From contig OZ255839.1 in NCBI GenBank assembly GCA_965277675.1, forward strand, positions 1,260,543-1,324,542: a DNA stretch of 64,000 bases, written 5' to 3'. This stretch comes from Candidatus Azotimanducaceae bacterium. GTDB lineage: Bacteria > Pseudomonadota > Gammaproteobacteria > Pseudomonadales > Azotimanducaceae. Under the pieces are notes generated by a model. It ran no database searches and was not told where the DNA came from. It was given only the letters and a program-made list of their open reading frames with translations. The position numbers were made by a program, and so were the translations under genes. Positions 46,835-47,204 of the stretch are shown in pieces. How positions within the stretch are numbered: the first letter of the stretch is position 1; the number at the start of each line of letters is the position of its first letter.

Positions 46835-46936
46835 CAATGATTCACAAAACCACTAAAGACGGCGTAAACTCTGTTTTTAGCGTGACAAGCGATATCAATC
46901 TGTCCAACGAGATCGCAAGCACTGTCAGACGCGTCT

Positions 46937-47184
46937 GATAGATAGATAGATAGATAGATAGATAGATAGATAGATAGATAGATAGATAGATAGATAGATA
47001 GATAGATAGATAGATAGATAGATAGATAGATAGATAGATAGATAGATAGATAGATAGATAGATAGATAGATAGATAGATAGATAGATAGATAGATAGATA
47101 GATAGATAGATAGATAGATAGATAGATAGATAGATAGATAGATAGATAGATAGATAGATAGATAGATAGATAGATAGATAGATA
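46937..47184. repeat. Perfect tetranucleotide microsatellite (GATA)62
   Basis: Counted directly: 248 nt with no interruption, decaying into aata-gat at 47185-47191. Confidence 0.98.
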
Positions 47185-47204
47185 AATAGATGACGTCAGT
47201 TATC

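Follow-up and report, generated by a model that had tools for sequence, protein, structure and literature searches.

A stretch of 64,000 nucleotides from contig OZ255839.1 of Candidatus Azotimanducaceae bacterium (positions 1,260,543 to 1,324,542 of the forward strand, referred to below as the window) contains just two tRNA genes detected by ARAGORN, and the spacer between them holds an uninterrupted run of 62 GATA units. Our preferred reading, to which we would give a probability of roughly 0.6, is that this run is a genuine, lineage-specific and near-neutral slippage microsatellite in the spacer of a tRNA operon, tolerated because the spacer RNA is processed away. On that reading the tract would have no dedicated function. 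It is an extreme bacterial simple sequence repeat (SSR) in an unusual place, and nothing that we have found is evidence of a new system.

The layout of the locus is given in Table 1. Both tRNA genes are intact and encode their CCA ends, on which ARAGORN, Rfam and a direct reading agree, and no other Rfam family is found at E <= 1 in the surrounding interval (46300-47800). The spacer (46835-47204) measures 370 nt. A regular-expression search and TRF concur on the perfect (GATA)62 run that the first-pass annotation of this DNA had described; TRF carries the array somewhat further (46937-47191, 63.8 copies, 99% matches) because the final units read AATA GAT, after which 13 further unique bases lead to tRNA-Gly, making the whole right flank 20 nt. 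The array is a head-to-tail succession of 4-nt units, 62 of them perfect, with 1.8 degenerate copies. Microsatellites in nature typically show just such a pure core and decayed edge unit. With thresholds set at 9 or more copies for mononucleotides, 6 for di-, 5 for tri- and 4 for tetra- to hexanucleotides, the tract is the sole SSR within the 64,000 bases, and it is far beyond chance. It is also non-coding, as had been supposed: no open reading frame (ORF) of at least 50 aa overlaps it on either strand, and the stop-free minus strand, entertained as a coding sequence, was dropped since there is no ORF there. The tract has a G+C content of 25%, against 54% for the genome. The flanks of the spacer resemble neither the rest of the window nor any of the loci fetched for comparison, and the notion that they might be a repeated or mobile element was given up on that account.

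Table 1. Features of the tRNA-Glu/tRNA-Gly locus, in window positions.
Feature	Positions	Strand	Basis or remark
sigma-70-type stable-RNA promoter TTGACG-17-TAGAAT, then G+C-rich discriminator tcgcgcc	46712-46740	+	10/12 consensus positions
tRNA-Glu(UUC), encoded CCA	46759-46834	+	ARAGORN; Rfam, 57.6 bits
Unique left part of spacer, 102 nt	46835-46936	+	begins caatg, as in most relatives
Weak promoter-like site TTCACA-18-TAAACT, upstream of tract	46841-46870	+	9/12 consensus positions
Perfect 14-bp palindrome TCAGACGCGTCTGA, overlapping first GA of tract	46925-46938		1 of 9 such in window
Perfect (GATA)62, 248 bp	46937-47184	+	longest perfect GATA run by regular expression, 62.0 copies
Degenerate 3' edge of array, AATA GAT	47185-47191	+	direct reading; TRF
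Perfect 8-bp palindrome TGACGTCA, in 20-nt right flank	47191-47198		1 of 236 such in window
tRNA-Gly(GCC), encoded CCA	47205-47280	+	ARAGORN; Rfam, 72.4 bits
Possible 3'-end or processing hairpin, 7 bp, GACUCAA...UUGAGUC, directly after tRNA-Gly, no U tail	47291-47318	+	-9.4 kcal/mol, z -0.36

The two tRNA genes are adjacent on one strand, with a single promoter upstream of the first, which is the arrangement of a tRNA operon. That promoter is the only good match at the locus and is kept almost base for base, G+C-rich discriminator included, in all five of the related lineages considered below, so that its identification in the first-pass annotation is borne out; the start site would lie at about 46747, leaving a leader of about 11 nt. 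The tract begins 197 nt downstream of this promoter and not between its hexamers. A consensus scan, confined to sigma-70-type sites and blind to weak promoters and those of other sigma factors, finds none inside the tract or in the short stretch (20 nt) leading to tRNA-Gly, as had been claimed, and a scan for canonical intrinsic terminators finds none in the spacer or after tRNA-Gly. Any recognisable start thus lies upstream of the tract, and the tRNA-Gly precursor would therefore carry (GAUA)62; co-transcription of tRNA-Gly from such a precursor is, judging from the sequence, likely.

The alternative is that there are two independent units, tRNA-Gly being served by an unrecognised promoter of its own in the right flank or at the tract's 3' end, and the array being either untranscribed or an A+T-rich UP-like element. 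We regard this as decidedly unlikely, although one relative lends it some substance: the 75-nt spacer of locus L001 contains a strong promoter-like site (TAGCCA-16-TATAAT, L001 7930-7957, 10/12), which means that independent tRNA-Gly promoters can arise at this locus, and tRNA-Gly in that lineage may have one. To the extent that the first-pass annotation derived tRNA-Gly from a (GAUA)62-bearing transcript, its argument holds in that no recognisable start lies past the tract, and is weakened by the internal site of L001. Direct reading also finds that TAGATA matches TTGACA at 4 of 6 positions, and the scan is limited in the way already stated. Nevertheless, no hexamer in the tract or right flank has both the A2 and the T6 of a -10 element, the gap between tract and tRNA-Gly is only 20 nt, tRNA-Glu is not followed by anything resembling a terminator, and relatives with spacers of 42-44 nt lack a promoter-like site (read from their sequences, with L005 scanned); these relatives almost certainly co-transcribe both tRNAs.

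In the course of events that we favour, the array would have grown by slipped-strand mispairing within the internal transcribed spacer of a tRNA-Glu(UUC)-tRNA-Gly(GCC) operon driven by the conserved, stringent-type sigma-70 promoter. A primary transcript of ~570 nt would run through the spacer and endow the tRNA-Gly precursor with a 5' extension containing (GAUA)62; RNase P would cut at 46759 and 47205, endonucleases and 3' exonucleases would trim tRNA-Glu back to its encoded CCA, and the spacer RNA would be degraded. Tolerance of the array would come from a spacer that is without sequence constraint (it is unrelated in every relative), from the character of the tract RNA, and from mismatch repair, which would correct four-base loops poorly. 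The RNA in question contains no cytosine, is 75% purine and is unpaired in the predicted centroid fold; as DNA, the tract comes to 0 kcal/mol on either strand. Rho loads on unstructured RNA that is rich in C and poor in G, and the sense transcript, having no cytosine, should therefore be a poor loading site. The antisense transcript, (UAUC)n, would be G-free and C-containing and should be a good Rho substrate. Rho-insensitivity, the processing route and neutrality are thus properties that we infer.

Tetranucleotide tracts of more than 9-10 copies are classed as hypermutable, with rates of 1e-5 to 1e-2 per division (PMC4235727, Table 1), and 62 copies exceed that threshold several times over; the tract should be highly unstable in length. 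Prokaryotes do not suppress tetranucleotide SSRs, a possible cause being inefficient repair of loops of 4 nt or more (PMC4060949). Slippage that has homogenised the array recently, or is still doing so, would fit its purity and its one decayed edge unit. Features of the surroundings might also contribute. GC skew is negative in nearly all 2-kb bins of the window (cumulative value, -1.71), with genes evenly split between the strands; the skew is a weak hint that the + strand is the lagging one, in which case transcription of the tRNA operon would meet replication head-on. R-loops are favoured by purine-rich RNA, and R-loops as well as a head-on orientation would promote fork stalling and slippage.

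The same locus is available for comparison in nine loci of five lineages (L001; L003; L004, accession CP121333.1; L005-L008 with L010; and L009), all reached through homologues of an upstream dehydrogenase gene, with 89-92% amino-acid and ~70-77% DNA identity. The order dehydrogenase, small protein, tRNA-Glu, tRNA-Gly is kept in all nine; the sequence of tRNA-Glu is identical throughout, and that of tRNA-Gly matches the window's exactly in seven (L003, L004, L005-L008 and L010). The spacer is another matter. Its length in the five lineages is 75, 42, 63, 121 and 44 nt, the sequences are alike just in their first five bases (caatg or caacg) and are otherwise unrelated to each other and to the window, and not one of the nine contains a GATA array. 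This comparison, which the first-pass annotation had proposed as a check, therefore identifies the tract as a lineage-specific expansion in a fast-evolving spacer.

A closer view of that turnover comes from L005 and L009, which carry an identical dehydrogenase (P0005) and are 99.9% identical over 6.4 kb, up to 5 nt past tRNA-Glu (position 6464). Beyond that position they are unrelated: the spacers are of 121 and 44 nt, the downstream genes are others, and there is a different tRNA-Gly allele (87% identical to the window's). A break just past tRNA-Glu marks this junction as a turnover hotspot, and the 3' end of tRNA-Glu appears to behave as a within-species recombination or integration breakpoint. 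Genes downstream of tRNA-Gly differ in every lineage. Unrelated spacers, the L005/L009 break and variable downstream genes together imply that the spacer is unconstrained and the locus a recombination hotspot. In Pseudomonas, tRNA-Glu/tRNA-Gly clusters are hotspots of island integration.

It might be asked, then, whether the tract arrived ready-made, as a fragment of a eukaryotic microsatellite or with a mobile element that had a tRNA hotspot for its target. The breakpoint after tRNA-Glu, the gene content past tRNA-Gly that differs in every relative and a G+C content so far from that of the genome could all be read in that sense. Yet the vicinity contains neither an integrase nor a mobile-element gene, no tRNA 3' end is directly repeated there, the flanks are without a match elsewhere, and a pure array with one degenerate edge unit speaks for ongoing local slippage, whatever the seed may have been. 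We consider acquisition from a foreign source very improbable indeed. A genomic-island signature (integrase, att repeat) was sought and the idea dropped, neighbouring ORFs yielding nothing of the kind in Pfam or NCBIfam.

How singular is the tract? A scan for (GATA)10 over one genome per species (185,579 species) gave at least 120 loci (L011-L130), to which the following counts of listed matches refer. Long GATA tracts are, since at least 120 loci were found, not rare in absolute terms; intergenic tracts of 10-80 copies are scattered over many prokaryotic phyla. The median copy number is 12.5, with 21 tracts at 20 copies or more, 8 at 30 or more and 1 at 60 or more. Most are intergenic, in that 73 of the 80 lying away from locus ends are not spanned by an open frame. 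At 41 of the 120 loci no more than 300 nt lie between the tract and a locus or contig end (23 touch it), as is to be expected where short reads cannot cross such sequence, and true lengths in short-read assemblies are therefore under-reported. Isolates and complete genomes of Alcaligenes, Alicycliphilus, Bdellovibrio, Chryseobacterium and Pontibacter have 15-27 copies, (GATA)26 in Alcaligenes phenolicus DSM 16503 among them.

The sole credible bacterial tract of more than 62 copies in this list is a perfect (GATA)79 in a metagenome-assembled genome (MAG) of Endozoicomonas sp. (L024, CBDBOO010000068.1, 7194-7509). It sits 147 nt upstream of a gene for a potD-like periplasmic binding protein, beside that of a potA-like ATPase, both of them genuine ABC-transporter genes, and has degenerate AATA-type units at its 5' edge, resembling the edge of the window tract. 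Proximity to a tRNA gene (within 1 kb) is seen for only 2 of the 120, about what tRNA density predicts by chance, and the idea that GATA tracts as a class are associated with tRNA genes was accordingly rejected; none lies between two tRNA genes. Among the matches listed, the only other tRNA-adjacent tract is a (GATA)25 in an Elusimicrobia MAG chromosome (L126, OY969767.1, 4709-4808), 34 nt past the 3' end of a tRNA-Ala(GGC). Some of the longest tracts need to be discounted. A single 'Metamycoplasmataceae' MAG, CBDHHR01, accounts for five of the eight longest, and nine of its contigs (L022, L066, L069, L084, L094, L096, L114, L115 and L127) have GATA tracts of up to 58 copies. These contigs have a G+C content of 40-51% and mostly low ORF cover, values not credible for a mycoplasma, and the probable explanation is host (eukaryotic) DNA that was binned with the MAG. 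A literature search on bacterial GATA repeats or on tRNA operons with microsatellites turned up eukaryotic or unrelated papers and nothing else. The description of the window tract as very unusual consequently needs to be divided: it is apt for a length at the top of the distribution combined with a position in a tRNA operon, and too strong for long GATA tracts as such, of which there are at least 120, one of them longer.

Abundant GATA microsatellites in animal DNA, and contaminant-like matches of the kind just described, raise the question of an artefact: the real spacer might be short or have fewer copies, and the array might be an error of consensus or polishing, or a mis-join through a microsatellite read of the host. 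The tract is known from one assembly, without independent confirmation, and the cluster of the source genome has a single member. Exact-protein look-ups with the two upstream genes and with P0001 led to no contig with an independent copy, scanning metagenomes with the 177-aa orphan protein yielded 368 pattern matches of which 0 were confirmed, and doing so with the left junction sequence gave 0 matches. Against this, both flanks consist of syntenic bacterial genes in the order and orientation of the nine related loci, and with synteny holding on both sides a chimeric join appears very unlikely. The tract lies inside a contig whose reported length is 4,323,565 bp, from which we would take the assembly reads to be far longer than the 255-bp array; the unique flanks of 102 and 20 nt join it cleanly, and its degenerate last unit resembles that of a natural microsatellite. 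Short-read assemblies, moreover, are interrupted by tracts of this kind and do not create them, as the many tracts at contig ends attest. The earlier caution about an assembly artefact is therefore to be kept insofar as no independent assembly was found and relaxed as regards a chimera; overall, an artefact strikes us as distinctly unlikely.

A different kind of objection is that the tract is functional: a hypermutable element of the contingency type, placed inside a stable-RNA operon. As a rheostat, its copy number would alter tRNA-Gly(GCC) relative to tRNA-Glu through polymerase pausing, R-loops or precursor half-life; as a binding platform, it would offer A+T-seeking nucleoid proteins an island of low G+C, or allow Rho to load on antisense RNA and so insulate the operon from the convergent genes at 47415-47957. 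Length far above the hypermutable threshold (PMC4235727), perfect purity and the absence of any other SSR from the window can all be cited in favour of this proposal, as can the palindromes at both edges, the base composition of the minus-strand transcript, the convergent minus-strand ORFs just downstream and the position of the Endozoicomonas (GATA)79 upstream of a gene start. What speaks against it is that the tract is found in none of the five related lineages, that it lies neither within an ORF nor between promoter hexamers, that GATA tracts are not enriched near tRNA genes, and that the edge hairpins are no better than shuffles. We know of no protein in the Gammaproteobacteria that binds GAUA or GATA arrays, and to our knowledge binding of GAUA/UAG repeats in the manner of Hfq, CsrA, TRAP or HutP does not fit, by reason of spacing or taxon. 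Contingency loci occupy reading frames, positions between or next to promoter hexamers, or 5' UTRs, and occur as sets; this tract is situated between two tRNA genes, is single in 64 kb and, on the grounds of position, is not filed among them. A functional role is, in our estimation, unlikely, and the more specific proposition of a module selected for its variable length, with slippage retuning tRNA-Gly(GCC) against tRNA-Glu or with a Rho- or nucleoid-protein barrier to convergent transcription, is quite improbable.

The palindromes deserve a few more words, having been singled out in the first-pass annotation. Both are real and perfect, and their hairpins do no better than shuffled controls. 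The 8-mer is unremarkable, since the window holds 236 perfect 8-bp palindromes; the 14-mer abutting the tract is suggestive only, and its hairpin as DNA is weak (-3.8 kcal/mol). A weak hairpin between GAUGAC and GUUAUC is possible in the right flank, abutting the +1 of tRNA-Gly (-1.5 kcal/mol, not significant), and the predicted fold of the 102-nt left part of the spacer likewise does not surpass shuffles (z -1.24). The hairpin that directly follows tRNA-Gly has counterparts in the relatives, as read from their sequences. All of these, the edge palindromes and the post-tRNA hairpin, were dropped as significant structures because their energies are no better than those of shuffled sequences.

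Our preference for a near-neutral slippage microsatellite has to contend with several difficulties. Copy number, and even the presence of the tract, rest on one assembly. Drift alone can hardly maintain a perfectly pure array of 62 copies, which must be of very recent origin, subject to continual homogenisation, or selected for length. Since it is the sole SSR in 64 kb, nothing points to repeat control having been relaxed across the genome, a condition under which neutral expansion would be expected. Finally, the promoter-like site in the L001 spacer, together with the blindness of the scan to weak or non-sigma-70 promoters, leaves co-transcription as something that we infer.

The neighbourhood is otherwise that of a densely packed bacterial chromosome with ~54% G+C. 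Upstream of the tRNA pair are genes for a TonB-dependent receptor (Pfam), a class III alcohol/S-(hydroxymethyl)glutathione dehydrogenase and a 189-aa orphan protein, the search for homologues of which returned none other than itself. The named near neighbours of the dehydrogenase are from MAGs of marine, Pseudomonadales-type Gammaproteobacteria. A 520-aa version of it (L002 163-1725, on a 2.7-kb metagenome contig) scored above the window's own protein and is followed by an esterase gene, the usual pair for formaldehyde detoxification; the window has its orphan 189-aa gene in that place. Downstream, on the minus strand, a 102-aa ORF (47415-47723) has an N-terminal tandem repeat of 6/12 nt (47684-47716) encoding QKQKQRQKQR; CxxC...CxxC motifs and two hydrophobic stretches come after it, and no family match was found. 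Next to it, a 63-aa ORF (47766-47957, minus strand) starts with MQTTIRELSEDEMHAASGG, which resembles a double-glycine leader, and has a sub-threshold match to the lactobin A/cerein 7B family of class IIb bacteriocins (E 0.0027, 17.4 bits, cutoff 21.5); it may be the gene of a small secreted peptide. A 142-aa ORF (48167-48595, minus strand) has a sub-threshold match to the HNH nuclease-like HlpB (E 1.8e-11, 44 bits, cutoff 130) and overlaps the 3' end of an alpha/beta-hydrolase ORF (48462-49148), so that one of the two frames may be miscalled. Tandem repeats with a 15-nt period occur at 53305-53358 and 59353-59389 (3.6 and 2.5 copies, 87% and 81% matches), both within the coordinates of long minus-strand open frames.

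If real, the tract is among the longest pure tetranucleotide arrays in a bacterial context, and the sole one among the matches listed that would have to be transcribed through for a tRNA to be made. It offers a test of how far an unconstrained bacterial microsatellite grows when four-base loops escape repair, of the tolerance of RNA polymerase, Rho and the tRNA-processing enzymes for a 250-nt C-free leader, and of whether slippage at such a site shifts tRNA dosage. Should the rheostat or barrier proposals prove true, this would be the first contingency-type locus to act on tRNA supply and not on a protein gene; should the tract simply be neutral, its practical use would be as a hypervariable strain marker.

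Among known systems, the tetranucleotide contingency loci of Haemophilus influenzae and Neisseria (AGTC, CAAT, TAAA) are mechanistically the closest. Their tracts typically range from ~15 to 40 copies. Like the window tract they are perfect slippage arrays, largely invisible to mismatch repair and above the hypermutable threshold of ~10 copies. According to De Bolle et al. 2000, as cited in PMC4235727, most have at least 15 copies. They differ in being placed within the frames or promoter regions of surface or restriction-modification genes, whereas the window tract occupies a tRNA spacer with nothing to switch; and they form multi-locus 'phasomes' in host-adapted bacteria, in contrast to one SSR of 62 copies in 64 kb. 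The sporadic (GATA)n tracts of other prokaryotes share the motif, the purity and mostly the intergenic location with the window tract, and differ from it in length (one credible tract is longer) and in not being situated between two tRNA genes. The tyrT-tyrV operon of E. coli is co-transcribed. It has an inter-tRNA spacer of 209 nt and a tandem-repeat trailer (178 bp x 3.1), rttR/tpr (annotation, TRF), and is likewise a polycistronic tRNA operon containing long, tandemly repeated non-tRNA sequence that is removed by processing. Its 178-bp unit, however, is situated downstream of the second tRNA, takes in a portion of the tRNA 3' end and gives rise to a stable small RNA (sRNA), whereas the window array has a 4-bp unit, lies between the tRNAs and has no predicted product. 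Marine Beggiatoaceae have intergenic TAACTGA heptamer repeats at 169 loci per genome, with few copies each and conserved across lineages, for which a post-transcriptional role has been proposed (PMC4679880); these too are direct repeats of a short unit, found in the non-coding DNA of free-living marine Gammaproteobacteria, but the window tract is a single, non-conserved locus of 62 copies. In motif and array length the counterpart is identical and eukaryotic: the GATA microsatellites of the Bkm type. Those arrays have eukaryotic chromosomal contexts, whereas the window tract is flanked by bacterial tRNA genes in conserved synteny.

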